Below, piece by piece: positions 35,319 to 55,839 of a stretch of DNA of 64,000 nt. The notes under the pieces are model-generated. The model saw nothing but the letters and a program-made list of their open reading frames with translations, was not told the DNA's origin and made no database searches. The position numbers and the translations under genes are program-made. This DNA comes from an uncultured bacterium. Lineage in GTDB: Bacteria; Patescibacteriota; Saccharimonadia; UBA4664; SCTI01. The first letter of the stretch is position 1. The number at the start of each line of letters is the position of its first letter. The DNA is taken from contig CAVRJJ010000001.1 in assembly GCA_963721685.1 (NCBI GenBank), positions 212,170 through 276,169 of the forward strand, read 5' to 3'.

Positions 35319-36116
35319 ATGATACTATTAAATATAGTGGCTATGGTTAAACCAATCTATTTTCGAGGAATTAAAATTGCTTTTTTTGCAGTTATCGCGC
35401 TCCTGTGCGTGGTGTTATTTTTTTTCGGGGCCAACGAACTACGGCCGAAAAACTCCTTTATCCAATCGGCCCAGGCAATTGCGGACTTAAAAAGGGCGAC
35501 TGGAGAATTGAGAATATTACTGCAAGACACCTCAAGTGGTTCCGACCAAATTGCCCGCAAGTATATATTTTATTTGGACCGGATGGAGCAGTCCTGCCAA
35601 CACGTTGCCGTTGCTACTAACGGCCCTGACTTTGCCAGCCTTACATCCGCCGAAATAGGTAGCATGAAGCAAAGCCTGGCCCTATGTAATGATCTGGTAA
35701 TGCTGGTTGCCGCGTCAAAAAAGCAATATGATACGCTGCAACCGCTCTTAACTGCCGATGCCAGCCCCCCGCGGTACCAAACCTTGCCCCCCTTCAAAAA
35801 CCAGATGAAACAACATCATACTAAGGTAGTTGAATCGGCACTTAAGCAGCTTTCTCCAGCATCATCAGACAAAACTGCATTTCCTTCTACCGCTGCAAGC
35901 GAGCTCAAGCAGCTTCGGACGTCTGTCAAGAACAGCCCTGGACTTAGCTACTTGCCAAATTTGGAAGCGTTTCAACTGAAAATGGCCGGGGAGCGCCAAC
36001 ACTATTGGTCGGCTTATGCCGACATTGATTCGCTTGAGCATAGCCTTACGACACAATTATCAAGATATTGCAGCGCTAATGAGGTAAAAAAGAGACTCTC
36101 TTACCAATGCCACTAA
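35319..36116 (+). CDS. membrane-anchored hypothetical protein
   Basis: Single N-terminal TM helix, otherwise a helical soluble domain. Confidence 0.4.
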   Translation: MILLNIVAMVKPIYFRGIKIAFFAVIALLCVVLFFFGANELRPKNSFIQSAQAIADLKRATGELRILLQDTSSGSDQIARKYIFYLDRMEQSCQHVAVATNGPDFASLTSAEIGSMKQSLALCNDLVMLVAASKKQYDTLQPLLTADASPPRYQTLPPFKNQMKQHHTKVVESALKQLSPASSDKTAFPSTAASELKQLRTSVKNSPGLSYLPNLEAFQLKMAGERQHYWSAYADIDSLEHSLTTQLSRYCSANEVKKRLSYQCH

Positions 36117-36126
36117 CCGACGCCGG

Positions 36127-39100
36127 TTACTTATTCCAGAAAAAGCGTTTAGATCCGCCGCAGAACGCCGCCCCATGGCGCAAACGTTTTTCTAAAGTGG
36201 GTACCGTACAGCGGGTAATTTCTGGCCAGGCATTATAAGTAGTGAGTAAAGTTCCGCTGGATTTTACCACGCGCAAGCAGTAGGTACTTTCATAGGTTGC
36301 CTTTGATAGGTCTAAGTCAAAATCCCAGCGCCCATACTCACCTGCGGCAATCGCCTGTGTATTCGTAAAATAGTTGTTGGTAATGTAATTCTGCGGTCGT
36401 ATCGTTGCGCCCCCTTGAGTTGGGTCACTGCCGCTTGAAACCAAACCACCGTAATTATCGGCAGGCTGGCCCCCCCAATTAACCGGTGGGCTCATGGTCA
36501 TGACGCGGTTGCCGGTGCCTGTGGCGGCAACCGCCACGAACACTCCGTTGTTGTAAGTGACGGAGTACCAATCGTTATCCTCGACGCTGGGGCGGATGGT
36601 CCAGGTAATGCCGTCGGGGCTGGTCATCACGCGGTTGTCGGAGCCGGTGTAGCTGACCGCCACAAACAACCCGTTGCCGTGAGTGACGGAGTACCAATCG
36701 TTATCCGCCGCGCTGGTGCGGGGGGTCCAGGTAATGCCGTTAGGGGAGGTCATGACACGGTTGCCGGTACCGGAGGCGGCAACTGCCACAAATAACCCGT
36801 TGCCGTGAGTGACAGATTGCCAAATATTATTAGCTGCGCTGGTGCGGATGGTCCAGGTAATGCCGTCGGGGGAAGTCATGACCCGGTTGCCGGAGCCGGT
36901 GTAGCTGACCGCCACAAATAACCCGTTGCCGTAAGTGACGGAGTACCAATCGTTATCCGCCGCGCTGGTGCGGGGGGTCCAGGTGGTGCCGTCGGGGGAA
37001 GTCATCACCCGGTTGCCGGTACCAGAACTTGCGACCGCTACAAACAAGCCATTGCCGTAGGTGACGGAGTACCAGAGGTTATCCGCGGCGCTGGTGCGGA
37101 TCGTCCAGCTAATGCCGTCGGGGGAAGTCATCACCCGGTTGCCGGTACCGGTGGCGGCAACTGCCACAAATAACCCGTTGCCGTAAGTGACGGAGTACCA
37201 ATCGTTATCCGCCGCGCTGGTGCGTGGGGTCCAAGTGATGCCGTCGAGAGAGGTCATGACGCGGTTACCGATACCAGAACTTGCGACCGCTACAAACAGG
37301 CCATTGCCGTAAGTGACGGAGTTCCAGGAATTGTCCGCGGCGCTGGTGCGGCTTACCCAACCGGCAATACCAACATCATGATAGGTCTCACTATTAGAGC
37401 ACACGCTACCGCTGCGAGCTGCATAATGCAATGCAAAATTACTATCACCAGGGTCGGCATCTCCTGTGGTAGCACCGAGATTCATGCGCAGCCGTAACGA
37501 ATCGCTACTTGCCGCAGTCGTAACGGCGTCTTGTGATGACAGCGCTTCACCCACAGCGGCGTCGACCCCCGGAGCAGTCATAACTCGGTTGCCGGTGCCG
37601 GATGCTGCCACTGCTACAAACAAGCCGTTGTTATAAGTTACGGCCTGCCATAAGTTGTCTGCCGCGGAGGTTTGGGAGGTCCAGGTAATACCATCAGGTG
37701 AAGTCATCACCCGGTTGCCGGTCCCTGATTGCGCTACCGCTACAAACAACCCGTTGCCGTAAGTGATGGACTGCCAGGATTGATCAGCACTGGTGCGGGG
37801 GGTCCAGGTGGTACCATCGGGGCTGGTCATCACCCGGTTACCGATACCAGAACTTGCGACCGCTACAAACAACCCGTTGCCGTATGTAACGGAATTCCAA
37901 GTATTATCCGCGGCGCTGGTACGGGAGGTCCAGGCAGTGCCGTTGAGGGAGGTCATCACCCGGTTGCCGGTGCCGGTTTCCGCCACCGCTACAAACAACC
38001 CGTTGCCATAAGTGACGGATTTCCAATCAATGTTAGCGGCGGCAGTGCGGGGTGTCCAAGTGATGCCGTCGGGGGAGGTCATCACCCGGTCATTAATGGT
38101 TCCGGTAACACTTGGACTTACCGCTACATACAGACCATTTCCATAAGCGATACCGCTCCATGCATTGTCAGCGGCACTGGTGCGGGGGTCCAGGTGATCC
38201 CGTCGGGAGAGGTCATAACCCGGTTGCCGGTCCCGGTAGAACCCACCGCTACAAACAACCCGTTGCCGTAAGTAACAGAGTTCCAATAATTATCGGCGGC
38301 ACTGGTGCGGGGGGTCCAGGTAATGCCGTTAGGAGAGGTCATAACCCGGTTGCCGGTCCCGGTAGAGCTTACCGCTACAAACAGATCTTTGCCATATGTT
38401 ACGGATCGCCAATCATTATTTGCCGCTGAAGTGCGGGAGATCCAGTTACTGGCGGTTGACTGCGTGGTAGTGCCCGAGGTCATTACTCGATTACCGGTAC
38501 CGCTATTTGAGACTGCCACAAACAAACCATTTCCGTAAACGACACCAAACCAAGCATTGTCTGCCGCGGAGGTTCGGGAGGTCCAGGTGATACCATCAGG
38601 TGAAGTCATGACCCGGTTTCCGGTGCCGCTGTTTCCTACAGATACAAATAGACCGCTAGCGAAAGTAACTGACCGCCACAAGTTGTCTGCTGAGCTGGTC
38701 CTTGATGTCCAGGTAATACCATCAGGTGAAGTCATGACGCGATTGCCGGTACCAGTGGTGGCCACTGCCACGAACAAACCGTTACCGAAGGTAATTGAAG
38801 TCCAGTTATTGTCTGCCGCGGAAGTTCGGGATGTCCAGGTGATGCCGTCGGGGGAGGTCATGACGCGGTCACCGGTACCGGAAGCTGCCACTGCCACGAA
38901 CAAGCCATTGTCGTAGGCGACTGATTGCCAACTATTATTAGCTGCACTAGTGCGGATAGTCCATGTGATACCATCAGGTGAAGTCATGACCCGGTTGCCG
39001 GTACCAGAGGTGGCTACTGCCACAAACAAGCCGTTGCCGTAAGTAACGGAGTTCCAGTTGTTATCCGCCGCGGAAGTTCGGGGAGTCCAGGTGGTACCAT

Positions 39101-40141
39101 CAGGTGAAGTCATGACCCGGTTGCCGGTACCAGAGGTGGCTACTGCCACAAACAAGCCGTTGCCGTAAGTAACGGAGTTCCAGTTGTTATCCGCCGCGGA
39201 AGTTCGGGAGTCCAGGTGGTACCATCAGGTGAAGTCATGACCCGGTTGCCGGTACCAGAGGTGGCTACTGCCACAAACAAGCCGTTGCCGTAAGTAACGG
39301 AGTTCCAGTTGTTATCCGCCGCGGGGGTATTGCGTGAAATCCAGTTAACCCCAGCAGTTCTTTCCTCTTGACCAAACCAACGATGTGAAGCTTGTGTATA
39401 ATCGGCGTTTTGAGAATATGTCACTGCCGCATAAACTGAGGCAATTCGAACATCATCATCTTGGGCAGATGGCCCCCCAGAACCCAGCCGATTGCGGGTT
39501 ATTTGAACTTGCATGCTGTCAAGATCGCTTTGAGTCCAGGTGCCGTTGAAGGTTACAGCCGAACACCACGCCCAGGTGTTGAAGGCTGGTGTACAGGTAC
39601 CTGCAGTCTGTAACGTTCCATTTATACGTAAATTTATACTTAAAGAATCTAGTGTACTACCATTGGCATTGGTAGCACTTTGGGCATGCACATTTATGCT
39701 GACCTGAGACACTGATAGTACATTAGAGGCATTGGTTAAACCGAATTCCTCCACCTCACCTCCGGATCCCGCGGTACCTGTGCCTATATAATCGGCCGTA
39801 TTGGCAGTTGCTCCTTCATCCACATGATCACAATGAGGTCCGCCAGAACACGTAGAATCGTTAGTGCCAACCACATTGGGCCAATCAGACGTAATGTCAA
39901 AGCTTGGAACAATATTGCTAGTGGCGGCGTAAACGGGAGTTTGGAACATCACAATTGTTCCCGCCAGCAAAGACAAAATAAATACAATTGCGGGTACTTT
40001 ACTCCGAGAGAGCTTGGCTAACTTGAAGCTTGGTGGTGTTCGCTTTCGTGTTGACCTTAGCCGCCTCAATATTGGCAATAGCACATTGCGTTGCTTTTTC
40101 CTTTGATGCTTTGGGGCACTGTTTTGGATGGGAATTATCAT
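36127..40141 (-). CDS. giant BNR/Asp-box repeat surface protein (about 1338 aa if corrected), currently split into three ORFs by two 1-nt frameshifts in G-runs (about 38185 and about 39207)
   Basis: At least 30 tandem 40-aa units of VMTSPDG(I/T)TWTPRTSAADN.W.SVTYGNGLFVAVA..GTGNR containing the S-x-D-x-G-x-T-W Asp-box. An N-terminal signal anchor is present. Confidence 0.7.
38970..39330. repeat. three near-identical 120-bp tandem copies (one 40-aa BNR unit each); the middle copy differs only by one G fewer in a G-run
   Basis: Identity at the DNA level, seen by direct comparison of 38971..39090, 39091..39209 and 39210..39325. Confidence 0.8.
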
Positions 40142-43100
40142 TAGTTTGTGTACTGGTAACTTATTTCACCAATTCGGACCTTGTTGCTGGACTTCGAAAT
40201 TACCCGCACAGTGATGGTGATTAGGTCGTTGGCGGCATAGGTACAACCACTGAGCGTTACGCTCTGCTCGGTCCAAGTAGCCGCCGTGCCAGGCAGAACC
40301 GATACCGAGCTAGCGCATGCGGTCCCGGCGCCATCCTTAACGGTTACCAGAATATCGTTATTTGCCGTTGAGGTTGAATCGCCATAGGCCCAAATTTTAA
40401 AGGTACCAAATCCCGACGCGTACTCGCTGGGAATCTGATTTCTTACAATAACGTCGTAATCATTGAGAGTCCCGGTGCTATTGAGCCATTCATAATAGTT
40501 ATGAATATTGGTGCCATCGTAATTGGAGGTAATAGAGCCGCTATTATTACTGCCATCGGCTGAAAGTATGCCTCCCGGATATTCAGGGACAATATAGTTC
40601 TTACGCGTCGAGCCGCCTCCTCCGCCGCCACATGATCCAAAGGCGAGGGTACCGGGCGTGGCACTATTTTTCAAACACTCGTTAGCGGCACCCGCGGTAG
40701 TGGGTAAAACTAAATTGTAGCTTGTCGAGGTCGTACCTACGCTTATCGTGACGGTGTTGGCGTTAGCTGAGTTATAAACCACCAGCTTGCCAGTTAGGGC
40801 AGATGCCTTGCCAAAAAGCACTTGGTTTGCCGAGGTATCTACGCCCAGCACCGTATTACCTGCTGTGTTTTGAACCTGAAGTGCAGCCGCTGAATTAGCC
40901 TGGAACTTTACTAAGCCGCTTGAAGACACGTCACCTGCTATGTGAGCGCTCCCACCAACATTTAGGCCACCCTGGATGCTCACACCGCCACCTATGGCAG
41001 CGTTGCCGATGGTAGTCAAAGTGCCAGATTCTATGCCGCCTGCTTCCAGCTGTTGCACGTAAGCTCCGCCGATATCGTAGATAGTCATATTGCTTGAATT
41101 GTAGTTTGCCACGTAAGCGTAGCGGCCTTGGACGTAAACTGAAGTTGGTGCGTCGCCAGTGGCAACCGTTCCAGTTAATACTGGGCTGGACGGGTTTGAG
41201 ACATCAAAGATGTTCATGGAATCCCCAAGGTAGTTTGCCACATAGGCGAACCGATCCTGGACGTAAACTGAAGTTGGTGCGTCGCCAGTGGCAACCGTTC
41301 CAGTTAATACTGGGCTGGACGGGTTTGAGACATCAAAGATGTTCATGGAATCCCCTACGTAGTTAACCACATAAGCATAGCGGCCCTGAACGTAAACTGA
41401 GTATGGATTACTGTCTGTGGCAATAGTGCCGATCTGTGTTGGACTGGCCGGGTTGGAAACGTCATATATATCTAGGTCATCCCAAAAATAGTTCGCAACA
41501 TAGGCATAGCGGCCTTGGACGAAGATTGAGTACCCCCCACTGGTGCTTGCGAATGTTCCAGCAAGAACTGGACTGGACGGGTTAGCTATGTCGTAGATAG
41601 TCATGGAGTCGGAATTATAGTTTGCTACATAGGCATAGCGGCCTTGTACGTACACTGAGGCTGGTGCGTCGCCCGTCGAGACTGTTCCGGCCAATACAGG
41701 CGTGGACGGGTTTGAGACGTCATAGATGGTCATGGAGTCTCCAAGGTAGTTTGCCACATAAGCATAGCGGCCCTGGACGTACACTGAACCTGGTCCGTCG
41801 CCAGTGGCAATAGTCCCGACTTGTGTCGGACTAGAGGGGTTTGAAACATCAAAGATTGTCATTGAATCCGCGCCGTAGTTTGCAACATATGAATAACGTC
41901 CCTGGACGTAAACTGAGTATGGGTTAGTTCCAGTGGAAATCGTCCCTGTAGTGCTAGAAGGAATTTGCCCGGAGACATATAGTTGTCCGGCGGAAGTACC
42001 AATAGCTCCTACCTGGACCCGCATATTGGTTGTGTCTACATTGAAAACATTGGTTCCGCTAGTGGCGTTCTGTATCTTAAAGGCAGAGGTGGAATCAGTT
42101 TGGTTGCGTAAGGTGGTCGCCCCCCCATCAGCGATCTTAAACACATCTTGGGCGGTAGCGGTGGTATCTCGGATTGTAAGTAAGTTGCCACTACCGGCGC
42201 TTTCAATCCTGAGTCCTTCAACCGCTCCGGTAGCAAGCTGTTCAACCTTAAGGACAGCTCCCGAGGAGACCCCGCCGCTTGCGGGGTTTTGGAAGATCAA
42301 GTTACCGTCAATGGCTGTTAAGGCGAGGGTGGCATCGGCACTGTCAACATCCGCGGCATAAGCCTGCTGAAGAGTGGAACCTCCTCCAGCACCACACCCA
42401 AGATCAGTGGTATTACACAAGGTCTTGTACGTCGGGGTTCCCGCAACATCTTCCACGACCATGAACTTCCCGGTTTGGGAGTTGTAAATGAGGCCGCCGT
42501 TGACCGCGGTGGGCAAGTTGGCAGTATTTGAAGAATCAACTACGAATAAGGTGGTGTCAGTGCCGGTGGAGGCGGTGGCGTTACCGACGATAAGCCGGTT
42601 ATTGGTGGTGTCGGCGGTAAAGAGGGTGTCGGCATTACTGCGTTGGATTTTAAAGGCAGTGATTGAGTTAGCAGTATTTTCAAACAATACATCACCTGTG
42701 CCGCTCATGGTGAGGATGGGCCTGGTAAACGTAAAGGTAGTACCGGCGGCAAGGTTAGTTGTGAATGACGCCGACACAGTCAGCGTGGTGTCATTTGTTA
42801 TGACGGCTACGCGGCGAGCTTCGCCGCCGGCAAAAATGGTGTCTCCTACCCTTAGCTGAGTAGTAAACACAGTACTTACGTTACCGGTAACAGTGGTGCC
42901 AGAACTACTAATTGTGCCTGTACCGGCCACGGCTGAGTTCTGAACCTGGAAACGGTTCTGGACATCAGCGAGCAAGCCAATACCAACGCCGCCTGTAGTG
43001 GTACTGGCGCTCAAAACATTCGCCCCTGTAGATGTTTGAACCTGGAAGGCGGAGGTTGAGTTGGTAGTGGTTCTATGCGTGGTGGCACCACCATTACCTA

Positions 43101-45327
43101 CCGTAAATACCGTATCGGCAGTTATGTAATTGCCGGTACCACCATATCGAGTGACCTTAAGCGCGTCAAAGTTACCACCCTGTTCGGCCGTTAATGCCGG
43201 TCCAAGGTAATTGCTCGCCCAGGTTCCAAAGCTGTCAGTTACTTCAAAATAGCCGCCGCCGCCTTTGGCTGTGTATACAAGTTCAGAGTCAGAAATCTGA
43301 AATAGGAGAGCGCCATCAGTCCCTTTTCCTTGAATAAAAGTGCCACCGCCAGCAATAGCAATAGCCGGCGAGCCGCGGCCAGCATTATTTATGTTGAGCC
43401 CACCTTGCAAGTTAATAGCTTTAGCGTTCAACTCTCCATAGCCGGCAGTTGATGAACCAAGCGTGGAGCCAGTTATCACTTCTTGGCCGTTGGACGATAT
43501 CAAGCGTACATATTTGAGACTATTGTTGAAGTAATCATAATAACTAATTCGAGCGAAGCCGTCGGAGCCAAGAGCCAGTGAAGTCTTGTAGCCGACGTAT
43601 CCCGCACTATCCAAGGCAGTAAGGGTTTTCGCGGAACAATCAGCGTTGGTACACTGGCCATACATTAGGGCATGTTTACTGCTATTGTAGTAGCTAATTC
43701 GAGCGAAGCCATCAGAGCCAATGCCTAAAGAGGTATACAGCCCCGTATGATCGGTATTGTCTACGGTGGTGAGGTTGTTGGTGGAGCAATCAACATTGGT
43801 GCATTGGGCAAACTTGAGGCTTGTGTTACTTGAATCGTAGTAACTAATGCGGGCGAAGCCGTCGGAGCCGACCTTAATTGATGTGTCGTAATTAGAGCCC
43901 GTGTCGACCGTTGTTATAACTTTTGTACTACAATCGGCGTTGGTACATTGAGCATACATCAGGTCAAAGTTAGACGTATCCTGATAGGCGATACGGGCGA
44001 AGCCGCTAGCATCCAGATCCAACGAAGCGTAGCTGCCTCGGGTACTTGTAGAGTCCACAATAACATTATTTTTCGTACTACAGTCGGCGTTGGTACATTG
44101 GATGAATTTAAGGTCGGTACCTGAATTGTGCCGGTAGGCTATACGGGCGAAGCCGTCGGAGCCAAGAACTATAGGTGTAGCGGCGTTCCCAGCGACCGTG
44201 CTAAGCACCGTAGTATTTTTAGTACTGCAGTCAGCGTTTGTGCATTGAATGAATTTTAGCTCGGAATCCGTAAAATGCTTGTAGGCGATGCGGGCGAAGC
44301 CGTCGGTACCGATAGCTATCGAGCTATAATCACCTACAAAGTTGGAGCTTTCCAGCGTGGTGATAACAGGGCTGGTGCAATTAGCATCGGTACACCGGGC
44401 AAACATTAGGTCATGGTTGGTTAAGTGTTCGTAGGTAATGCGGGCGAAGCCATCCAGGCCAATGGCAATTGAAGAGCTGGTACCTACCCCTCCCGTATCG
44501 GCAATCTTGGTTATTACGTTGCTCGTTAAACTGCCCGGTGTTATTGATTCTAGGTTGCCAGTTGAAATCTTAAGCGCAGATGTGTCGGCAGTGAACAGGT
44601 TTACAGCGCTGGCGTTTTGGATACTAAAGGCCGTAGTACTTGTTCGGCTAATTAATTGGTCCCCATTTGTAAAAGTATTGGCCGCGTCGTTGCGGGCATA
44701 GCTGGTGCCATCAACCCCGTCAAGCTTGTCGGCGTTGAACGCGTAGGGAGAAGAGCCTAAGGGCTGGCGCGGAGTCATTATTTCGGCGCCACTAAAGACG
44801 GCGCAGCCATTAGTGGCGCAGGTAGCTCCTGATGAGGGCATCTCAACCTCCACAAACAAGCTGGTTTGAGTGAAGTCAAAGGTGGATAGGGAAGTGATGT
44901 CACCGAATTGGATGGAAAATAGGCCGTTGGTTACCTGCACGCGGTTGTCGGTGCCGGTGATGATCCTATCTTCCTGGAAAACGTTACTTCCACCTGACGA
45001 GGCAGTATATATGCGGAACTTGATGTTGTAGAGACCATCCGCAACAGTGTTGCCAGCGGCGTTGGTCAGCCGACCCTGGAAATTAATCTTGTACGGGATG
45101 GTGGAGGCGGCTTGAGCGGGAGGGGAGAGCAGGGGAATAACGGCGCTGAATGTTAAGCCGAAGAAAAGGGCTGCCAAGGCAGCGATAGCCGGTTTCTTGG
45201 TTGAAAAGCTACGTTTGAGCAGGTTGGGCAAAAATTTAAGAGACCTTAAAGCGCCCAACCGAGTCGGGTTCATTGGTAACGGGGTATTCTGACTGCCCGA
45301 AGATCGCTTCTGGTAGTGCCCGTTCAA
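40141..45327 (-). CDS. giant (1728 aa) secreted/anchored surface protein with 8 Cys-containing 50-aa repeats and 8 LVIVD-type beta-propeller repeats
   Basis: TTG start with an AAGGAG RBS 12 nt upstream, and a signal anchor. Repeat A is ..GSDGFARIAY....LKFIQCTNADCSTKN. Repeat B is SVYVQGRYAYVANY.GDSMTIYDVSNPSSPVLAGT, which is LVIVD-like. Confidence 0.75.
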   Translation of the reverse strand: MNGHYQKRSSGSQNTPLPMNPTRLGALRSLKFLPNLLKRSFSTKKPAIAALAALFFGLTFSAVIPLLSPPAQAASTIPYKINFQGRLTNAAGNTVADGLYNIKFRIYTASSGGSNVFQEDRIITGTDNRVQVTNGLFSIQFGDITSLSTFDFTQTSLFVEVEMPSSGATCATNGCAVFSGAEIMTPRQPLGSSPYAFNADKLDGVDGTSYARNDAANTFTNGDQLISRTSTTAFSIQNASAVNLFTADTSALKISTGNLESITPGSLTSNVITKIADTGGVGTSSSIAIGLDGFARITYEHLTNHDLMFARCTDANCTSPVITTLESSNFVGDYSSIAIGTDGFARIAYKHFTDSELKFIQCTNADCSTKNTTVLSTVAGNAATPIVLGSDGFARIAYRHNSGTDLKFIQCTNADCSTKNNVIVDSTSTRGSYASLDLDASGFARIAYQDTSNFDLMYAQCTNADCSTKVITTVDTGSNYDTSIKVGSDGFARISYYDSSNTSLKFAQCTNVDCSTNNLTTVDNTDHTGLYTSLGIGSDGFARISYYNSSKHALMYGQCTNADCSAKTLTALDSAGYVGYKTSLALGSDGFARISYYDYFNNSLKYVRLISSNGQEVITGSTLGSSTAGYGELNAKAINLQGGLNINNAGRGSPAIAIAGGGTFIQGKGTDGALLFQISDSELVYTAKGGGGYFEVTDSFGTWASNYLGPALTAEQGGNFDALKVTRYGGTGNYITADTVFTVGNGGATTHRTTTNSTSAFQVQTSTGANVLSASTTTGGVGIGLLADVQNRFQVQNSAVAGTGTISSSGTTVTGNVSTVFTTQLRVGDTIFAGGEARRVAVITNDTTLTVSASFTTNLAAGTTFTFTRPILTMSGTGDVLFENTANSITAFKIQRSNADTLFTADTTNNRLIVGNATASTGTDTTLFVVDSSNTANLPTAVNGGLIYNSQTGKFMVVEDVAGTPTYKTLCNTTDLGCGAGGGSTLQQAYAADVDSADATLALTAIDGNLIFQNPASGGVSSGAVLKVEQLATGAVEGLRIESAGSGNLLTIRDTTATAQDVFKIADGGATTLRNQTDSTSAFKIQNATSGTNVFNVDTTNMRVQVGAIGTSAGQLYVSGQIPSSTTGTISTGTNPYSVYVQGRYSYVANYGADSMTIFDVSNPSSPTQVGTIATGDGPGSVYVQGRYAYVANYLGDSMTIYDVSNPSTPVLAGTVSTGDAPASVYVQGRYAYVANYNSDSMTIYDIANPSSPVLAGTFASTSGGYSIFVQGRYAYVANYFWDDLDIYDVSNPASPTQIGTIATDSNPYSVYVQGRYAYVVNYVGDSMNIFDVSNPSSPVLTGTVATGDAPTSVYVQDRFAYVANYLGDSMNIFDVSNPSSPVLTGTVATGDAPTSVYVQGRYAYVANYNSSNMTIYDIGGAYVQQLEAGGIESGTLTTIGNAAIGGGVSIQGGLNVGGSAHIAGDVSSSGLVKFQANSAAALQVQNTAGNTVLGVDTSANQVLFGKASALTGKLVVYNSANANTVTISVGTTSTSYNLVLPTTAGAANECLKNSATPGTLAFGSCGGGGGGSTRKNYIVPEYPGGILSADGSNNSGSITSNYDGTNIHNYYEWLNSTGTLNDYDVIVRNQIPSEYASGFGTFKIWAYGDSTSTANNDILVTVKDGAGTACASSVSVLPGTAATWTEQSVTLSGCTYAANDLITITVRVISKSSNKVRIGEISYQYTN
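41101..41357. repeat. two near-identical tandem copies of about 125 bp inside the LVIVD-repeat region
   Basis: 41146..41228 and 41266..41357 are identical over about 85 nt. Confidence 0.7.
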
Positions 45328-45477
45328 ACTAGCTTTTTACTCCTTTGTGTTTGCTCACACCAAACTGCAGCTAACTACAGTGAGATGTAGCTTAAAGTAT
45401 AGTGCTTATGCTTAAGCATTACAAGGCGGTTATGCTTATTTTAGTGTTGGGTTTTTAATATAAAAAACGACTATTTG

Positions 45478-47670
45478 TTAGCGTACCGTCACCGTGACTG
45501 ACTTTGTCCCGACGTTACCAGCAGAGTCCTTGGCCTTGACGGTGATGGTATGAGTACCTTTCCAACGCTTGGGCTTGGTGTTCCACGTGGTGCTAAGATA
45601 GCTGGAACTAGCTGAGGCGTAGAGGGCGTTATCAATGAATATCTGGAGAGAGACTACCCCGACGTTGTCAGTAGCCTTGGCGGAAATGGTCACCGTGCCG
45701 GAGAGGGTAGCGCCGCTGGTGGGGGCGGTTATGGTGACGACCGGCAGGGTGGTGTCGGTGGTTATATTCTTTACCGTCACATTGACAACTTGGGAAGTAC
45801 CGACGTTGCCGGCAGCGTCGTAGGCTTTGGCAGTCAGGCTGTAAGCGCCGTTTGCTACCACAGTGGTATTCCAGCCGTAACTATAAGGAGAGCTAACATC
45901 CTCACCAAGCTTGGAGGCACCTTGGTAGAACTCAACCTTAGTGACACCAACGGCGTCGCTGGCGCTGGCTGTGAGCTGCGCTGTTCCGGAAATGGTAGCG
46001 CCAGCAGCGGGAGTGCTCAGACTCGCGGTAGGGGCGGTGGTGTCACCGGGGACGGGCGGAGGGGTTGGAGCCGGGGGCGGGGTTGTGGAAGCGGTGCCGC
46101 GGTAGGCATTCCACATACTCTTCACGAATAGGCTGTAACGATTGCCGGTATCTTTACTGGTTCCGTGCAGGGCTGGAAAGCGACCAATGCCGTTGCTTGC
46201 ATCAGTATCTTTTATGCAACTCCCTTGACCGTCCGGGCCATATTTAACTCCATAGTTTGTGGAAAAACTAGGATCTAAATATATTACCGGCGCGCAAGGG
46301 TCAGATTGTGTGAAAAATCCAAAATTTACCCAGCGGTCGGCATAATCAAGCAGCGTCTGTGAAGCCCACAGGCTCTTCATTTCCGGCATTAGATGGTGCG
46401 CTATGGCGATTGCCTTATACGGCTGGGCGGTAATCTTTTGATAAGAAGCACTCGGCAAATTACCCCCATCTATATAGCCATACGGGTCGGGCTGGGACTT
46501 ATTTCCAGCACTATTATCTTTCAATGTTTCCCAGTAATTTCGTTCTACAACGCTTGGTCCGGCGCCGCCCCAGAGTAATCGACCCTCTTTGCCAACTCGT
46601 ATATGCGAATCTTCATGCAGGCTTGGCGTAGCCGCGATCTTGGATTTTAAGGTCGCATCATCCAGCAAGGTAGCCGCAAAGACAATTGGCAGTTTGTGCC
46701 CGGGGTCGTGGCCTGCTCCTGCTCCCCAGACTTCACCTTGGATTAGCATGTGGTTCCAGTCAATTCCCGCTTGCACGTAAGCGGTCAGGGCGGGCATTTT
46801 AGCGCTCAGCGGGTCATCAAGCATAAGAGCCAAAGCGCCATCACCGGTTTGCACGGCGTTATCACCGCCATAATTAGGCATACTATCGATGGGACGGAGT
46901 TGTCGGGAGTAGCGACCGCCCAAATGGTCTAGCCTAACCTGCTTAAACCGAGCCGTGGCCACATCGAGGGTCATTTTACTCTCAACGGAAGGCTTGGATG
47001 GTAATAGGCTTGTTTTGAGCTGGCTAACATAGTAATAGGGCTTGGCGGTGCCAATGTATGGTGGCCGGAAAACAGTTGCTCCGTCCCCGGGGGGCGGGCT
47101 AGCGACTACTGTGAGTACCGCGGCTGTCTGAATACAAGATGCGTTAAATCCGGCACAGGTGCTCGTTTCCGGCGCGCTCACCGTCTTCACGACGGATTGC
47201 CCTGGCGCCGCGTTATAGGGTAAAGCTGGGATCATGGCCGGGGTAAAGCTGGTATTACCGGTGCTCCCACCAATCCTAGCGTCGAAACCCTGTTGATCGC
47301 CGGCATTAACATTAGGGTTCACCTCCCAGCCGTTGCGGCCGGTAATATAATCCGGGGATATGCTGGTTATTCGAACCGCGGTATCACCGGCATTAAGCGT
47401 AACCCAGTAGTCGCCGTTGGCAAATGTCCCGCAAGGATAAGGTTTATCAAACGTCCAAGTAATGCCGTGCTGTGCCACTTGAGTACACATTCCCGTAGCC
47501 GCAAAACTACGGAGTACCACAAAGATACCTATCCCAATTAACAGAGCAGCAATAATACTGGCAATGAGTGGATTAAACGATTGGGATCTTAGTAATAGTG
47601 ACTTTGGCGCAGCCTTGGTTTTTTCATCTGCTATTGTAGGTTCCACAAACTTTTCCCTTTGTTTAGTCAT
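45478..47670 (-). CDS. surface protein (730 aa) with N-terminal TM anchor and two C-terminal bacterial Ig-like (Big) domains
   Basis: The C-terminus carries two copies of an approximately 90-aa T.S.T....GAT.SGT..L.A.A.D.VGV..V.F pattern typical of Big/Ig-like domains. Confidence 0.65.
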   Translation of the reverse strand: MTKQREKFVEPTIADEKTKAAPKSLLLRSQSFNPLIASIIAALLIGIGIFVVLRSFAATGMCTQVAQHGITWTFDKPYPCGTFANGDYWVTLNAGDTAVRITSISPDYITGRNGWEVNPNVNAGDQQGFDARIGGSTGNTSFTPAMIPALPYNAAPGQSVVKTVSAPETSTCAGFNASCIQTAAVLTVVASPPPGDGATVFRPPYIGTAKPYYYVSQLKTSLLPSKPSVESKMTLDVATARFKQVRLDHLGGRYSRQLRPIDSMPNYGGDNAVQTGDGALALMLDDPLSAKMPALTAYVQAGIDWNHMLIQGEVWGAGAGHDPGHKLPIVFAATLLDDATLKSKIAATPSLHEDSHIRVGKEGRLLWGGAGPSVVERNYWETLKDNSAGNKSQPDPYGYIDGGNLPSASYQKITAQPYKAIAIAHHLMPEMKSLWASQTLLDYADRWVNFGFFTQSDPCAPVIYLDPSFSTNYGVKYGPDGQGSCIKDTDASNGIGRFPALHGTSKDTGNRYSLFVKSMWNAYRGTASTTPPPAPTPPPVPGDTTAPTASLSTPAAGATISGTAQLTASASDAVGVTKVEFYQGASKLGEDVSSPYSYGWNTTVVANGAYSLTAKAYDAAGNVGTSQVVNVTVKNITTDTTLPVVTITAPTSGATLSGTVTISAKATDNVGVVSLQIFIDNALYASASSSYLSTTWNTKPKRWKGTHTITVKAKDSAGNVGTKSVTVTVR

Positions 47671-47682
47671 AAGATATGAATG

Positions 47683-47990
47683 TTATTTCACTGTTACCGT
47701 TACTGTCTTCGTCCCGACATTACCGGCCGCGTCTTTAGCTTTGACGGTAATGGTATGGGAGCCTTTCCAGCGTTTGGGATTGGTATTCCAAGCGGTAGAC
47801 AGGGAGTTGGAGCTAGTGGAGGCGTAAAGGGCGTTGTCGATGTATACCTGGAGGGAAACTATCTCGACATTGTCGGTAGCCTTGGCGGAGATGGTTACCG
47901 TACCGGAGAGAGAAGCGCCGCTGGCAGGTGTGGTAATGGTAACGACCGGAAGGGTGGTGTCGGTGGTTGGGGCGGGAGGGGAGTGGGGGT
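47683..47990 (-). pseudogene. out-of-frame C-terminal Ig-like (Big) domain of gene 47895..49445; paralogous at DNA level to 45478..45790
   Basis: The reverse-complement translation PTTDTTLPVVTITTPASGASLSGTVTISAKATDNVEIVSLQVYIDNALY...ITVKAKDAAGNVGTKTVTVTVK* is about 85% identical to the C-terminus of gene 45478..47670. The frame is lost inside the C-rich PT-linker at about 47990-48000. Confidence 0.6.
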
Positions 47991-49445
47991 GGGAGTGGGG
48001 GTAGGAGCTGGAGGAGGTGTGGTAGTTGAACTGCCGTGCTCGTAGGCGCCCACGTCAAAGTAAGGCTGTGTCCCGCTACCGGTGTTAGTAATCGCAGGAA
48101 TGTCTATCCGTCCATTGCCGTCCTTGTCCGTAGCGGGAGCCGCTTCACTGGTACCGGCATCGATACCAAGAGAACCTGCGGCTAAATGGTGCTTATTAAC
48201 CGCGTCATAGGTCGGGGATCCAATAACATCCCCGGGAGCCAGAGAAACGCCGGATATCGCGCCTAAAAGGTTGTGCCCTCTTGAGGAGAAGGCGGTACCA
48301 GCTACCTCTAAAGCAGTCATGATGTTATTGGATAAATTCACCCCAGTCGCGCCACCGGAGAAACGGAACTGGCCTGCAACGGTATTGTTCATTATTTTCG
48401 CGTTGGATACCTCATAAATATTAACCTCACGGAACCCGCTAGCCGTAGGGTCCGAACAGGTACGATTTAGTATTATAGCGGAGGTAATGACGTTATTTTC
48501 AAGTGTAAGGCCGCTTACCGGGCCATCTTTAATAAAAAACCCTTGGGCGTCCATGTCATGGATGTAGTTGTCCCGAACAATCAAATTCTCACCGCCGGCA
48601 AATGTCCGCACCGAATCGGTATGAACACACGTCGTGCCCACTAAAGCCCGCCGCTGTCCACTAATGTCATTATTCTCAATTGTTAGATTGGAAAATTTGC
48701 GGGCGTTAACACCAACCACTCCGCCGGTTATAATATTACCGACAATTTTGACATGGGAAATTGATTGCTCACAAGTCTTCGTTCCATCAGCCGCAGTTGT
48801 ACAGCTACCCGATGAAAAAAAGACTCCGGTACGGCTAACAGTTTGGGCAAGGTCATCAAGCTCGATCTGGTTATTTTCAATAGTAACGTTGCTAACTCCA
48901 TCTTGAAGCGTAATACCAAGAGGAAGCTGCTTATTATTCCGAATCGTGATATTTACGACATTGTCGGGGTCGGTGGTCTTAGCTTTCTCTTCACCAATAC
49001 CGATACCGGCGATTTTTCCAAAATTTGCAATTACAATACTAGTTGAATTTTTAATTATATTAACCTGAGACAAACTTGTCTGCGCTTCCTCGCCTTGATG
49101 CGGCTGAAGAGTAAGGGGGAGGTAGCGCATATTTCCTGAAATGGTAATGTCGGGATAGGGCGTACTGGCTTTACGGAAGATTACCGTGCCGGCAACATCG
49201 CCGGGAAGTTGGGCAAGCGCGGGAGTAATGCTGCACCACGGCGTGGAAATAGTAACTTGGGCAGGAGTGCGTGCATCACTGCACTGACCCCCTAGGGAAT
49301 CCTTATCAATAAAGTATTGTGAGCCCTCGGATGCCCGCGTCGCTAGTACCACGAACACGCCCACACCAATTAATAATGCGGCTGCCAGGCCGGCAAAAAC
49401 CGGGTTAAACGGTCGTTTTTGTAATAATGGCGATTTGGGAGACAT
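47895..49445 (-). CDS. right-handed parallel beta-helix repeat surface protein with Pro/Thr linker; its C-terminal Ig-like domain is out of frame
   Basis: Tandem PbH1-like turns NVTIENNQI / NLTIENNDI / GLTLENNVI / NAKIMNNTV, followed by a TTTPPPAPTPTPTPTP linker. Confidence 0.7.
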   Translation of the reverse strand: MSPKSPLLQKRPFNPVFAGLAAALLIGVGVFVVLATRASEGSQYFIDKDSLGGQCSDARTPAQVTISTPWCSITPALAQLPGDVAGTVIFRKASTPYPDITISGNMRYLPLTLQPHQGEEAQTSLSQVNIIKNSTSIVIANFGKIAGIGIGEEKAKTTDPDNVVNITIRNNKQLPLGITLQDGVSNVTIENNQIELDDLAQTVSRTGVFFSSGSCTTAADGTKTCEQSISHVKIVGNIITGGVVGVNARKFSNLTIENNDISGQRRALVGTTCVHTDSVRTFAGGENLIVRDNYIHDMDAQGFFIKDGPVSGLTLENNVITSAIILNRTCSDPTASGFREVNIYEVSNAKIMNNTVAGQFRFSGGATGVNLSNNIMTALEVAGTAFSSRGHNLLGAISGVSLAPGDVIGSPTYDAVNKHHLAAGSLGIDAGTSEAAPATDKDGNGRIDIPAITNTGSGTQPYFDVGAYEHGSSTTTPPPAPTPTPTPTPLPPQPPTPPFRSLPLPHLPAALLSPVR

Positions 49446-49549
49446 AAGCGTGTTATATAGCTTAGCTTAATGGGTTAATTATGCTTATGCTTAACAATAC
49501 ACATTGCTTCTATATTTTGCAAACGAACACGGTTAAGTGATACAGAGTA

Positions 49550-49636
49550 TGGTACCGCTGGTCGGGCTCGAACCGACACGCTATTGCTAGCACGGGATTT
49601 TGAGTCCCGCGTGTCTACCAATTCCACCACAGCGGC
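49550..49636 (-). tRNA. tRNA-Leu (anticodon CAA), type II with long variable arm
   Basis: The reverse complement GCCGCTG-TG-GTGGAATTGGTAGACAC-G-CGGGA-CTCAAAA-TCCCG-TGCTAGCAATAGCGTG-TCGGTTCGAGCCCGA-CCAGCGGT-A-CCA folds as a cloverleaf. It has a GTTCGAGC T-loop and an encoded CCA. Confidence 0.85.
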
Positions 49637-49726
49637 ATATCAGTTGCGGTTGGCTATCGAACCTAAAAAGATTATCATACTTACATACTGATTTAAATTA
49701 CAAAGACTTTATGAGCCAATCTGAAA

Positions 49727-50903
49727 TTGTTCGTTTTCCACAATCATCCACCCGCTAGTCGGGAAAACAACCCAGACGGGGTCAAAGAAGCGCGCCAGCG
49801 CATTGCGGGCTTAAGCAATCCCTACCTAGCCCACGCCGCGCCGTCCAAAGAAGATCTGGTGGGAGCCGTGCAACCGGTTAGCCCGGCAGCAGAGGCAAGC
49901 AATGAGAAACCAAGCCCCTCCACCCCTTTTACCCTTACTTCGTCAGAGCAGCCTTCCGAAACTTCTGAGGCCAGCACTGACGACGCGGTGATAACGCGAG
50001 AAAACGTACTCCCCGAACTTGCGCATTTATTACCGCCTGTCCATGGGGCGGTGACCCAACAGGCAGCTGCCCACCCTGTACAGCCTGCCGCTCCGGTTAT
50101 CCCGGCAAATCCGCTGGAACAGCTGGCAGCAGCCGCCCCTAAAACCACTGCCCGCGCCCGTCGTAAACGTCCTGATACTGCACCAAAAAGCCTTCCCAGT
50201 CGCTTTATGCCGTTAGTAGTTGGTGTTGTAACCTTTGTGCTGGTTCTGCTGGCAGCTAAAGCTCCTGTCTTGCTTAACCAGTTTGGCTACCTAACCCAAG
50301 ATAAGCCCGCCCCAATCGTTGCGCCAGCCCAAGCGGGTGCCGTTACCGTACCCCCTGAGCCGGTTATTAGTATTCCTAAAATAAACGTCAATGCACCGGT
50401 TATTTACACCGACAACAACGCCGAATCGGTAATCCAAAAGCACTTAGAAAACGGGGTGGTCCATTACGACAATACCGCCCTTCCCGGCACCAACGGTAAT
50501 AGCGTAATATTTCGGCCACTCTTCAAATGACTGGTGGGAGCCGGGAAACTACAAATTTGTGTTTGTTCTGTTGGATAAACTGGTGGCCGGGGATACCTTT
50601 ACGGTTAACTACAACTCTAAGCAATACGTGTATGAGGTTACCGGCAGTAAAGTGGTACCGCCCACCGATTTAAGCGTGCTCAATCAAACCGACGAGCCGA
50701 CAATGACCCTAATTACCTGCACGCCCCCAGGTACGAGTTGGCAACGACTGGTTGTTACCGCTAAGCAAATTGGTCCGCCCACCACCAGCGAAACGCCTGC
50801 CCCAAAACCCACCGAAAGTGTAACGCAAAGCGAAAAGTTGCCCGGTAATGCGCCGGGCATTGGCCAGCGCATTTCAGAGTGGTGGCGTAACTTAACCGAT
50901 TAG
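49727..50903 (+). pseudogene. sortase (class E-like, long Pro/Ala-rich N-terminal region plus TM) split by a +1 frameshift in a T-run at about 50510
   Basis: ORF1 ends ...ALPGTNGNSVIFRPLFK*. The next frame reads YFGHSSNDWW... (His motif), and ORF2 carries TLITCTPPGT (catalytic Cys). Deleting one T restores ...NSVIFGHSS.... Confidence 0.7.
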
Positions 50904-51028
50904 GAAGGATATCCCGTACTCCCGTAAGATGATTTTTCGTAAGTGGACAGCTCCAGTGGTGTTCGGCGAAGCCACAATAACCGATTTACTGTCTGCCGAC
51001 GGCGTGGCTGCCAATACGCTAACCTTGG

Positions 51029-52303
51029 TTAGCGTATGCAGGTAGTTCCCGTCGTACTCACCGAGCACTGTGGAGTTGCCTTGTTTAAACAGTAAGTGGT
51101 TGTTGCCAAACCACAGTTGAGTCCGGAAACGTTCGCGGCCGCGACCGCTGACGGGAAGCTGCGGGTGGTGTGCTCCTGGAGGTCATAGGTAGATATATGA
51201 GACTCATCATACTGCAGCAAGTAGCGCCCTTCTTTATTAAAAACCGCCAAGACGCCCGTGGCCGGCAGTTCAATGGGGTGGGGATTGTGATATACGTTGC
51301 GGTAAAGGGTGGTTTTACGGGTATCCTGCGCTACCACCGCCACTACGGGTGTGCGAATATAATTGGTAAAATCAATTGAATAGCTTTGGCTGGGAGGCAA
51401 GCCCGCGACTAGTTGCTTGGTTTCGTCGTTGGTATCCAGCGACCACAATGAAGGCTGTGGTGTGGTTTTTGTGACATATAGCACCCGGCTTCCGTCAAAC
51501 CCAAAGCCGGCAACCTTCGTTGCCAGCACCGGCGAAACGGTACTGTCACTTACATTCAAGCGACGCAAACTTTGCTCATTAAGCCAGTAAAGTTGGCGCC
51601 AATTAGTTGGGCTGAAGGTCAAATTTTCAGGGTTTACAGCAAACGCGGCGGTAATGGAAACGGGTGTTTCAGTTGCCGTGTTTGCCACTAGCAACAAGCC
51701 GGTGTCGCTTCCCTTTGTTCGGCGCACCAGCATATGCGAGCTATCATTTGACCAGCTAAGAACACTGAGCGTCTCAGGTGCCGCAACGTCAGGCGTCGTG
51801 GGCAAGGGGAGAATTCGGCTCTGTGAATCGTTTTCGGTATTAAGCGACCACAAGCCGGCCTGCTCGCCGGTCGGGACAACAAAGGCCACCCGGCTATTGT
51901 CGGGACTGGCGACCATCTGGCTTAGCGCGCTGTGGGTAGCAATAGATTCGGTTTTAAGCCGGTCGCGCAACAATAAGACATACTGGTGCATACTTACCAG
52001 CGAGGGCTTAACATGAATTTTTTTATGCCAGGTTCGATAACCGGTCCGCGACAGGGTAAGATCGTACCACCCCTCCTCAAAACTGTGGCGAAACGGTGTT
52101 GCGGTGCCAAGCACTTTCGTCCCTAGCGTAACCTCGGCACCGTTGGGGGTAGAGCTTAACAGAAGCAAGCCACGCTGAACCAGCTTGCCGGTGGTAAAAT
52201 TATAAGTGTAACCATTGCCGTAAGCTACCAGTAAAACAGTACCCCCGAGAACAATCACGGTGGCGAGAATATAGCTTATAATGCCAAGGAATTTTCGTGA
52301 CAT
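51029..52303 (-). CDS. PEGA-domain membrane protein with C-terminal beta-rich (propeller-like) region
   Basis: N-terminal TM helix, then TPNGAEVTLGTKVLGTATPFRHSFEEGWYDLTLSRTGYRTW, which fits a PEGA fold. Confidence 0.45.
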   Translation of the reverse strand: MSRKFLGIISYILATVIVLGGTVLLVAYGNGYTYNFTTGKLVQRGLLLLSSTPNGAEVTLGTKVLGTATPFRHSFEEGWYDLTLSRTGYRTWHKKIHVKPSLVSMHQYVLLLRDRLKTESIATHSALSQMVASPDNSRVAFVVPTGEQAGLWSLNTENDSQSRILPLPTTPDVAAPETLSVLSWSNDSSHMLVRRTKGSDTGLLLVANTATETPVSITAAFAVNPENLTFSPTNWRQLYWLNEQSLRRLNVSDSTVSPVLATKVAGFGFDGSRVLYVTKTTPQPSLWSLDTNDETKQLVAGLPPSQSYSIDFTNYIRTPVVAVVAQDTRKTTLYRNVYHNPHPIELPATGVLAVFNKEGRYLLQYDESHISTYDLQEHTTRSFPSAVAAANVSGLNCGLATTTYCLNKATPQCSVSTTGTTCIR

Positions 52304-52389
52304 ATCGCTCGTACTATAGTGTAAGACCGTGCATATTACCAGAGTACGAAATGTAGCTGTTAAGCTTTAAACCAGGTATAATCACTGGT

Positions 52390-53397
52390 ATGTTTGGAAA
52401 AAAATTAGCCGTCGATCTAGGTACTGCCAATGTACGCATCTATGAGCCAAAGCAAGGGGTCATTATTAATGAGCCTAGTGTGGTTGCCATTAGTACAACC
52501 GATAATTCGGTTATGGCAATCGGCCTTGAAGCCAAAGAGATGCTTGGCCGGACACCGGATACGATTGTCGCGTCACATCCGCTCAAGGACGGCGTTATCG
52601 CCGACTACCGCATCACCCAAGCAATGATTCATCATTACATTGGCAAGGCTCTAGGTGGGTTCAGACTTACCCGCCCCGACATAATGATAACGGTGCCGGC
52701 CGGAGCCACTTCTACCGAGCGCCGGGCAGTAATCGACGCGACATTGGCGGCAGGAGCGCGAGCTGCCTATATAATCCGTGAACCAGTCGCGGCCGCCTTA
52801 GGCGCTAACGTGCCCATTGCCTCGCCGGCGGGCAATATGGTAGTAAATATTGGCGCCGGTACCACCGAAATTGCCATTATGTCACTAGGAGGTGTGGTAG
52901 CCCAGCACTCAATTCGGGTAGGAGGAAATAAGCTTGACGCCGCTATCGCCGAAGGCATCCGCCGGTCCCACGGGCTGGCTATTGGAGCTCAAACGGCCGA
53001 AGAAATAAAAAAGGAGTTTGGCAGCGCTTTAATCATCAAGCAGGACAAGAAACGTGAAATCCGGGGTCGCGATGTGGTGGCGGGGCTACCGAAAACCATA
53101 ACGATTAATTCTCATGAAATTACCCATGCCATGGCTGATGAATTGGAGAAAATTGTGTTGGCAATCCGCGCTGTTTTAGAAAAAACCCCGCCGGAGCTTT
53201 CGAGCGACATCATTGACCGCGGCATGCTTATAACCGGTGGGGGAGCCTTACTGGGAAACTTGGATAAACTGCTAACCAATATCACCGGTGTCCCCTGTGT
53301 AGTAGCCGAAGAAGCCCAGCTGTGTGTGGTTAAAGGAGCCGGGATAGCGCTTGATAACCTGGATGAATATAAACGCAGCTTGGCGGGACTGAAGTAA
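52390..53397 (+). CDS. mreB: rod-shape-determining actin-like protein MreB
   Basis: Motifs LAVDLGTANV, VVNIGAGTTE and GGGALL. Confidence 0.9.
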   Translation: MFGKKLAVDLGTANVRIYEPKQGVIINEPSVVAISTTDNSVMAIGLEAKEMLGRTPDTIVASHPLKDGVIADYRITQAMIHHYIGKALGGFRLTRPDIMITVPAGATSTERRAVIDATLAAGARAAYIIREPVAAALGANVPIASPAGNMVVNIGAGTTEIAIMSLGGVVAQHSIRVGGNKLDAAIAEGIRRSHGLAIGAQTAEEIKKEFGSALIIKQDKKREIRGRDVVAGLPKTITINSHEITHAMADELEKIVLAIRAVLEKTPPELSSDIIDRGMLITGGGALLGNLDKLLTNITGVPCVVAEEAQLCVVKGAGIALDNLDEYKRSLAGLK

Positions 53398-53401
53398 ACC
53401 T

Positions 53402-54700: not shown

Positions 54701-55837
54701 AGGTTGCCTTAGTCCACGACTGGCTCAATACCAAACAAGGGGGAGGGGAAAATGTCTTACTGGAAATGGCGGCGCTGTTTCCAGACGCCCCAATCTATAC
54801 TTTGCTCTATGACGCGGAAACATTTGACGGGAAGCTTGATCCTTCACGGATCCGGCCTTCCAACCTGCAGCGCTTACCGCGCTTCCTGCGAAAGCGCCCC
54901 CGCTACCTGCTGCCGTGGCTGGCTACCGCCATCGAGCAGTTTGATTTTAGCGAGTACGACGTGGTTATTTCTTCCTCCAGCGCCTTTGCCAAAGGCATAA
55001 TTACGAAGCCAGCAACACTGCATATTTGTTACTGCCACAGCCCAATGCGCTTTGTGTGGGATTACTGGCCGGCTTATATCCAGGAACAACGGGTTGGGCC
55101 GTTACGCCGGGCGGCCATCCATTTACTTACCTCCCGCCTGCGGCAATGGGATTACTACAGCGCGGCGCGGGTGGATTGCTGGATTGCCAACTCCCAGACC
55201 ACCGCCAAGCGCATCAACAAATACTACCGCGTTAACGTTGATGCGGTTATTTACCCCGGGGCCGATATCGGCGCTTTTAGCCCCACCGGCCACAAAGGAG
55301 CTTATTTTGTAACGCTCAGCAGCCTAACCCCCTATAAGAAAATTGATTTGGCAATTACCGCCTGCAATCAAATAAAGGCTGAATTAATAGTGATCGGCGA
55401 TGGGCCAGACCGAGAGCGGCTCAAGCAGATAGCCGGCCCGACCATCCGGTTTGCTGGCCGTGTTAGTAACGCCGAGCGGGCCAACCTGCTGAGCGGCGCT
55501 CAGGCTTTGCTTTTTCCTAATGAAGAGGACTTTCGGCATTGCACCAATTGAAGCCATGGCTAGCGGTACCGCGGTTATCGCTTACCGTAAAGGAGGGCTA
55601 ACCGAAACCGTTAAAGACGGGGTGACAGGATCCTTTTTTGACAACCAGCAAGTAGATGAGTTAATAGCGGCATTACAGGCGTTTAAGCCGCGGAACTTCA
55701 AGCAGGCCGACCTCACCCAACAGGCGCACAAGTTTAGCGACACGGCATTTCGTAAACACCTCAAAGAATACGTCGATACGGCTTACCGGAAGCATAAAAA
55801 TCAGCATCATGACCAATTCCTAGCCCGTCCATACTAG
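54697..55837 (+). pseudogene. glycosyltransferase family 4 split by a +1 frameshift in a T-run at about 55531
   Basis: ORF1 ends ...LLFPNEEDFRHCTN*. ORF2 begins ..FGIAPIEAMASGTAVIAYRKGGLTETVKDGVTG (GT4 C-terminal motif). Deleting one T gives EEDFGIAPIEAMA. Confidence 0.7.
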
Positions 55838-55839
55838 GA

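Follow-up and report, generated by a model that had tools for sequence, protein, structure and literature searches.

Positions 36,127 to 49,445 of the DNA analysed here (the window: 64,000 nucleotides (nt) of contig CAVRJJ010000001.1 from an uncultured bacterium) are coding throughout on the minus strand. They hold four coding regions in tandem, genes A to D, two of which (B and C) are intact open reading frames (ORFs). We consider it reasonably probable that these genes make up most of a lineage-specific ~14-kb block of a Saccharimonadia genome, in which A and B would encode exported, multi-propeller, glycan-binding proteins, C and D would encode exported, glycan-processing proteins, and the frameshifts that interrupt A and D would be errors. 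An earlier note, made from the sequence letters, had described the locus as four consecutive minus-strand genes for giant surface proteins of about 1338, 1728, 730 and at least 516 amino acids (aa). The four regions, their order and the sizes of B and C were borne out; gene A, on the other hand, is split over three frames (as assembled, three ORFs of 333, 343 and 719 aa), and gene D is frameshifted and extends to ~587 aa. The word "giant" is generous, given that relatives in the Candidate Phyla Radiation (CPR) reach 2000–3000 aa. Taken as a whole, the observation was partly confirmed and its interpretation partly supported. The genes and their modules are as follows.

36127..40141, minus strand: gene A, 4015 nt (not a multiple of 3), 1338 aa only with two single-C restorations; from the N-terminus, signal/anchor, an N-domain of ~200 aa, three seven-blade arrays (42 aa per blade) and a beta-rich domain in two pieces (insert and C-terminus)
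38439..39334, minus strand: gene A blades 1–7, with blades 1–3 at 92–97% DNA identity
37552..38438, minus strand: gene A blades 8–14
36472..37353, minus strand: gene A blades 15–21
40141..45327, minus strand: gene B, intact ORF, 1728 aa
43489..44535, minus strand: gene B Cys-pair module, seven ~49-aa repeats, predicted seven-bladed beta-propeller
41068..41937, minus strand: gene B LVIVD array, seven 43-aa repeats
45478..47670, minus strand: gene C, intact ORF, 730 aa
46087..47499, minus strand: enzyme-like domain at the N-terminus of gene C, a beta-sandwich with an alpha-helical, toroid-like part, no Pfam family, no PDB relative
45481..46047, minus strand: two Big_7 immunoglobulin (Ig)-like domains of gene C (Pfam PF17957, E 1.7e-37; PDB 9kvu, E 2.4e-15)
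47683..49445, minus strand: gene D, ~587 aa with one frameshift, uninterrupted ORF of 516 aa; in order, signal/anchor, right-handed beta-helix, choice-of-anchor-Q segment, Pro-rich linker, Big_7

The product of gene B is present as an exact protein in NCBI/ENA (P0001), and a protein identical to that of gene C is encoded on a Logan contig of run ERR12037361. MreB, encoded 3 kb away, is 96% identical to that of a soil Candidatus Saccharimonadia metagenome-assembled genome (MAG) and 74–88% identical to those of other Saccharimonadia and Saccharimonadales MAGs; judged by such protein identities, the organism is a Candidatus Saccharimonadia (Patescibacteria/CPR). The gene order tRNA-Leu(caa)–sortase–PEGA–MreB–Wzy–GT4 (positions 49550–55900 of the window) was conserved across Saccharimonadia (loci L002, L004, L006, L009, L010, L015 and L017), with the other side of the tRNA being variable. 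In the last five of these loci, a group comprising a helicase, an AP-endonuclease and orf34440 lies 0.1–1.8 kb from tRNA-Leu, whereas in the window this gap measures 14.25 kb and contains orf35319 together with genes A to D. Because these relatives hold orf34440 and tRNA-Leu so close together, the ~14-kb block (35.3–49.5 kb), which runs from orf34440 to the 3' side of tRNA-Leu(caa), is by comparison of gene orders a lineage-specific insertion at a variable site. Among the ~17 loci of Saccharimonadia type that were recovered around MreB, none had a homologue of A to D at E<1e-8. Of the relatives with sufficient sequence, the two closest have sigma factors (L002) and glycogen genes (L004) at the site. 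The block shares with tRNA-linked genomic islands its position at a tRNA 3' end and its absence from relatives.

35319..36116, plus strand: orf35319, a small membrane-anchored ORF of 265 aa with no family, within the inserted block and absent from relatives
49550..49636, minus strand: tRNA-Leu(caa), conserved right border, its 3' end facing the inserted block
49727..50903, plus strand: sortase, split by a frameshift, part of the conserved backbone and not of the island

The sortase carries an N-terminal extension of ~200 aa (49727–50530), consisting of a low-complexity region and one membrane helix before the catalytic domain, and the same extension is present in L002 and L004.

Genes A to D would be expressed from two similarly promoted operons, D–C and B–A. 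The gene B stop overlaps the gene A start (TAATG), genes D and C are 12 nt apart, and the 13-mer TTAAGCATAAGCA occurs exactly twice in the 64-kb window, upstream of B and of D. This 13-mer is probably a shared promoter or operator element.

45403..45415, minus strand: 13-mer upstream of gene B, inside a promoter-like TTGTAA-17-TATACT (45424–45396)
49482..49494, minus strand: exact copy of the 13-mer upstream of gene D

All four products would be exported by means of an N-terminal Sec-type signal or anchor. Each N-terminus has a basic segment, followed by a hydrophobic segment of 18–22 residues and an AxA-like site (VYA/A, AQA/A, SFA/A, TRA/S), and this pattern, read from the translations of all four genes, agrees with the N-terminal signal anchors that the earlier note had described.

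Gene A contains 21 repeat units of 42 aa, and their 7+7+7 arrangement suggests three seven-bladed propellers. In Pfam, the blades matched EPTP (E 1.9e-30, 105 bits) and DUF6242 (E 1.3e-11, 45 bits). They had been described as BNR/Asp-box repeats, but this assignment did not hold: no match to BNR (PF02012) was found in Pfam at E<=0.01, and the motif SPDGxTW is Asp-box-like with one residue fewer than the canonical SxDxGxTW. DNA identity between units was mostly 60–85%; apart from blades 1–3, two other pairs reached 91–93%. The longest exact DNA repeats in the gene measure 119, 114 and 105 nt (38969–39324). The claim that several repeats of the locus are identical at the DNA level is thus true of exact stretches of 98–119 nt but not of any whole unit, as the 126-nt units reach at most 92–97% identity. 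Given these exact stretches, the recombinational length variation that had been proposed is plausible. The gene A repeat has >6000 homologues, the best of which cover <=84% of A. The 42-aa blade is very common (50–78% identical to those of gene A) in Bacteroidota type IX secretion system (T9SS) proteins and in CPR "tail fiber domain" proteins, both with EPTP/DUF6242-type repeats. These proteins are anchored by a T9SS C-terminal domain or bear a Peptidase_S74 chaperone, neither of which is present in gene A.

With regard to gene B, the Cys-pair and LVIVD repeats of the earlier note were both recovered. CTxxDC(S/T) Cys pairs are found in six of the seven ~49-aa repeats, and the LVIVD array matched PF08309 in six stretches (E 1.9e-42), well above the family cut-off (142.8 vs 20.2 bits); a 98-nt exact DNA repeat (41129/41258) lies within this array. 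Structure prediction, which the note had recommended, returned a seven-bladed propeller of 28 strands for the Cys-pair module (AlphaFold2, 37 homologues; predicted local distance difference test (pLDDT) 88). The top solved matches of this model in Foldseek were the sugar-binding PLL/PHL lectins of Photorhabdus (template modelling score (TM) 0.72–0.81, E ~1e-16, 13–18% identity), and the predicted structure has the seven-bladed fold of that group. The module is therefore predicted to be a seven-bladed propeller that is structurally closest to PLL/PHL lectins, although in gene B it forms only one part of a 1728-aa protein. At the sequence level, it is 47% identical to modules of ~960-aa CPR proteins. 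More broadly, the homologues of gene B are Patescibacteria proteins of 960–3000 aa that have single modules in common with it, and none covers >39% of B. For the closest partial homologue (P0004), a look-up of the gene neighbourhood returned no record. Neither the N-terminal nor the C-terminal domains of A and B matched a family in NCBIfam or Pfam.

The first ~470 residues of gene C had no sequence match in Pfam, NCBIfam or PDB, and the AlphaFold2 model of this domain (pLDDT 92) showed an N-terminal beta-sandwich followed by an alpha-helical domain. A full HMMER search placed it in a family of 3814 clusters (E<=1e-3), with 40–53% identical homologues from many phyla, in which many polar positions (D, N, R, K, Y, Q) are invariant. 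Because members of the family bear T9SS, MYXO-CTERM, dockerin, FN3 and LamG tails, we read it as extracellular. Two viral models in BFVD matched the domain (TM 0.69). A tblastn search of phage genomes returned 21 records, all of them cluster-J mycobacteriophages (E 1e-26), in which the homologue lies between minor tail genes and a lysin A/lysin B/holin cassette. The phage protein (706 aa; Redno2 gp43, Halley gp45) has the gene C N-domain in common (32% identity over 279 aa) but lacks the Big_7 tail of gene C, and its annotation is inconsistent (lysin A, minor tail protein or hypothetical). Its placement among tail and lysis genes suggests that the domain may act on the cell envelope. A scan of a genome collection with gene C found no relative. 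We also considered a prophage origin of the locus and rejected it; matches in PHROGs were to families of unknown function only. The gene C domain thus represents a large, well-folded family without annotation, which we regard as the most interesting by-product of this analysis and as worth biochemical study.

Gene D contains a right-handed beta-helix (PF13229 Beta_helix, E 4.7e-11; 43 bits vs a cut-off of 25.9) and a choice-of-anchor-Q segment (32.1 vs 25 bits). Its out-of-frame tail matched Big_7 (PF17957, E 6.6e-17) and is 83% identical to the last Ig domain of gene C; in both genes, Big_7 scored above the gathering threshold. The Ig-like and parallel beta-helix repeats of the earlier note were accordingly found (best E 1.7e-37 and 4.7e-11, respectively). 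The signal/anchor regions of C and D (47500–47670 and 49335–49445) are clearly homologous (FNP..AALLIG.G.FVVL). Considered together, the homologous N-terminal regions and last Ig domains suggest that duplication or recombination may have given the two genes common ends.

The most likely cause of the three frameshifts in A and D is error in assembly or basecalling, and both genes are probably intact in the organism. The sites are listed below.

39206..39208, minus strand: gene A frameshift site 1, C3 run (C4 in the sister repeat)
38184..38188, minus strand: gene A frameshift site 2, C5 run (C6 in the neighbouring repeat)
within 47950..48000, minus strand: gene D one-base frameshift, in a C-run stretch of the Pro-rich linker, located to the stretch and not to a single base

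Both frame changes in gene A fall at one repeat position, the TWTP/RTS junction of the 126-nt unit. A pattern scan recovered 16 such junctions, and in 14 of them the spacer length is divisible by three (12 nt at twelve junctions). The two shift sites have an 11-nt spacer, one C below the neighbour (CCCGAACTTCC vs CCCCGAACTTCC and CCCGCACCAGT vs CCCCGCACCAGT), and the 119-nt exact repeat pair of the gene is spaced by 125 nt, not 126. When one C was restored at 39206–39208 and one at 38184–38188, gene A became an uninterrupted 1338-aa ORF. In gene D, the 516-aa ORF stops in the Pro-rich, C-run-rich linker, and the other frame carries on to a stop at 47683. Neighbouring genes outside the block were affected too. 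The sortase is split at ~50504 (50504–50512), in its catalytic GHSS region, and is a single ORF in at least seven relatives, L002 and L004 among them. The GT4 glycosyltransferase is split at ~55533, whereas seven relatives have the two halves joined in one frame. The PEGA-domain protein shifts frame in the window at ~51105 but measures 461 aa on a Logan contig (short-read) of ERR12037361; up to the frame change, 394 of 395 residues match, and the two sequences differ by 2 nt. The sortase and GT4 shift sites have the string TTTCGGC in common, which suggests a systematic basecalling error in the assembly. In total, six frameshifts were found in the 20 kb that we checked (36–56 kb), or approximately one indel per 3 kb. 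We read the shifts in A and D as assembly errors because sortase, PEGA and GT4 are also shifted here and yet intact in relatives or in a short-read assembly, and those of gene A in particular because each site is exactly one C below its sister repeats.

Two other explanations of these frameshifts need to be weighed against error. If the locus were decaying, A and D would be true pseudogenes, part of an island that a streamlined genome can do without. Three frameshifts within 13 kb are in line with decay, as is the absence of the gene A fragments from the protein collection, which would be expected if the annotation of the depositor had called pseudogenes. Nonetheless, we consider decay rather improbable, since shifts are as frequent in the backbone, where they hit GT4, PEGA and the catalytic region of the sortase, all of them genes with intact versions in relatives or the short-read assembly, and since, the missing bases aside, the frames of 1338 and 587 codons show neither stops nor any other sign of decay. 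The C-run frameshifts could alternatively be phase-variation switches that turn surface proteins on and off, given that all three shifts of the locus lie in C-runs and two of them at the same repeat position. This is very improbable: the runs at the shift sites measure 3–6 bases, far shorter than the tracts of known contingency loci, so that the long homopolymer or short-repeat tracts of phase-variable contingency genes were not found here. Comparable indels moreover affect housekeeping-type genes with no surface role, and some fall outside homopolymers (the 2-nt difference in PEGA, the TTTCGGC sites). An alternative genetic code behind the broken ORFs was ruled out, as the breaks are frame changes and not in-frame stops. 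With sequencing or assembly error as the preferred reading, gene calls from this assembly need correction ahead of comparative work.

As to function, the most likely roles are glycan binding for A and B and glycan cleavage for C and D; we infer these roles, as well as export and a part in host attachment. Gene A, with its three EPTP/DUF6242-type propellers, and gene B, with its PLL-lectin-like and LVIVD propellers and beta-rich stalk segments, would bind glycans on another cell or surface. Gene C (beta-sandwich/alpha-toroid) and gene D (pectate-lyase-type beta-helix), each with Big_7, would cut or modify polysaccharide of an envelope or matrix. The adhesin or host-interaction role that the earlier note had assigned to all four proteins is plausible, and we infer it from the export signals, the extracellular-type modules and the lectin-like propeller; it fits C and D less well, as these look like enzymes with Ig tails. 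A secreted toolkit for scavenging polysaccharides as nutrients, with carbohydrate-binding modules plus a lyase or hydrolase and no relation to host-cell attachment, would account for several of the same features. Many free-living polymer degraders have members of the gene C domain family, which bear dockerin, T9SS and LamG tails; the beta-helix of gene D is of the pectate-lyase type; and lectin-like propellers are able to act as carbohydrate-binding modules. Such scavenging is nevertheless unlikely in our view. Cultivated Patescibacteria are all reported to be obligate episymbionts (PMC11623550); the gene C domain occurs in phage proteins beside tail and lysis genes, which points to a cell-envelope substrate; and A and B are devoid of any catalytic module. 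A more far-reaching version of host interaction is that the block is a host-envelope attack kit of a soil Saccharimonadia epibiont, with A and B docking on an actinobacterial (possibly mycolate-type) host, C and D opening its glycan layers, and the gene C domain constituting a new class of envelope-glycan-cleaving enzyme. This proposal is doubtful, but if it were true, the new enzyme class would comprise ~3800 sequence clusters with no Pfam model and no solved relative, and would be common to mycobacteriophage tail/lysis-region proteins. It is extremely improbable that A to D are substrates of the adjacent sortase and covalently attached to the wall. The sortase gene lies 280 nt from gene D, so the adjacency that the earlier note had pointed out is real; however, the gene itself is frameshifted here, and its position carries no functional weight. 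The adjacency appears incidental because tRNA-Leu–sortase–PEGA–MreB is a conserved backbone, found in the same order in relatives without A to D. Furthermore, the C-termini of A to D are hydrophilic, and none of the four has the motif, hydrophobic segment or basic tail of a sortase substrate. A scan for LPXTG-like sorting signals found none in these C-termini or in any window ORF of 80 aa or more, as the note had already remarked for the four proteins.

Several observations weigh against reading the locus as an inserted block of exported glycan-binding and glycan-processing proteins with erroneous frameshifts. The export signals were judged by eye from translations. The lectin likeness of the Cys-pair module is at the fold level, with identities of 13–18%. 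For the gene C domain, no characterised relative was found in Pfam, NCBIfam, PDB or Foldseek, and no significant solved fold was obtained, the (alpha/alpha)6 glycosidase hints given by Foldseek being non-significant (E >= 0.39). Ten guessed versions of the Logan gene D fragment (one uncorrected and nine with C-run corrections) were looked up exactly in the protein collection, and none was present. Moreover, integrase, flanking repeats and deviant composition, which are further marks of tRNA-linked genomic islands, were not found: the block borders have no direct repeat of 10 nt or more and no partial tRNA copy, the four genes and orf35319 contain no integrase domain, and GC content overall and at third codon positions (GC3) lies within the background range. 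The tetranucleotide correlation of the block was lower, but this measure is confounded by the repeats.

The locus resembles other large, modular extracellular proteins of CPR/Patescibacteria, which likewise combine an N-terminal anchor with shuffled modules (beta-helix, LVIVD, propeller) and are encoded by several genes in tandem. In Saccharimonadales GCA_035717985.1 (L049, DASTHW010000006.1), for instance, tandem genes (2549, 432, 2008 and 2238 aa) encode proteins assembled from beta-helix, LVIVD and Kelch-type modules. However, no orthologue matching along the full length was found, and the combination and order of modules are specific to the present genome. CPR genomes typically carry variable surface-protein loci, and we regard this one as an ordinary case that reveals no new principle. 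The description of these proteins as typical of epibionts is in agreement with the affiliation of the organism to Saccharimonadia, a group with epibionts as its cultivated members (PMC11623550), and with the similar tandem clusters of the Saccharimonadales MAG. PMC11623550 also reports that a heptabladed-propeller pilin of TM7x contributes to host binding and that host cell-wall glycans are implicated. This minor pilin, PilX2, is a Saccharibacteria surface protein with a seven-bladed propeller as its presumed glycan-binding head, as would be the case for A and B (PMC11623550), but it has RCC1-type blades and lies in a pilus locus, whereas A and B have neither pilin features nor adjoining pilus genes. 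For a Gracilibacterium, a surface protein with repeats and an N-terminal anchor has been described (PMC6851277), and an environmental Saccharimonadia parasite lyses Gordonia, a mycolate-bearing actinobacterium (PMC11880426). Little is known about how CPR epibionts recognise their hosts and breach them, and it is reasonable to look for determinants of host range among lineage-specific blocks that encode exported lectin-like and enzyme-like proteins.

Elsewhere in the window, we noted genes for a CMAS cyclopropane-fatty-acyl/mycolic-acid-type methyltransferase (E 3e-95) and a PEPcase_2 (PF14010) phosphoenolpyruvate carboxylase (E 4e-136), at 22874–24196 and 24695–26206, respectively, both of which are notable for a reduced CPR genome.

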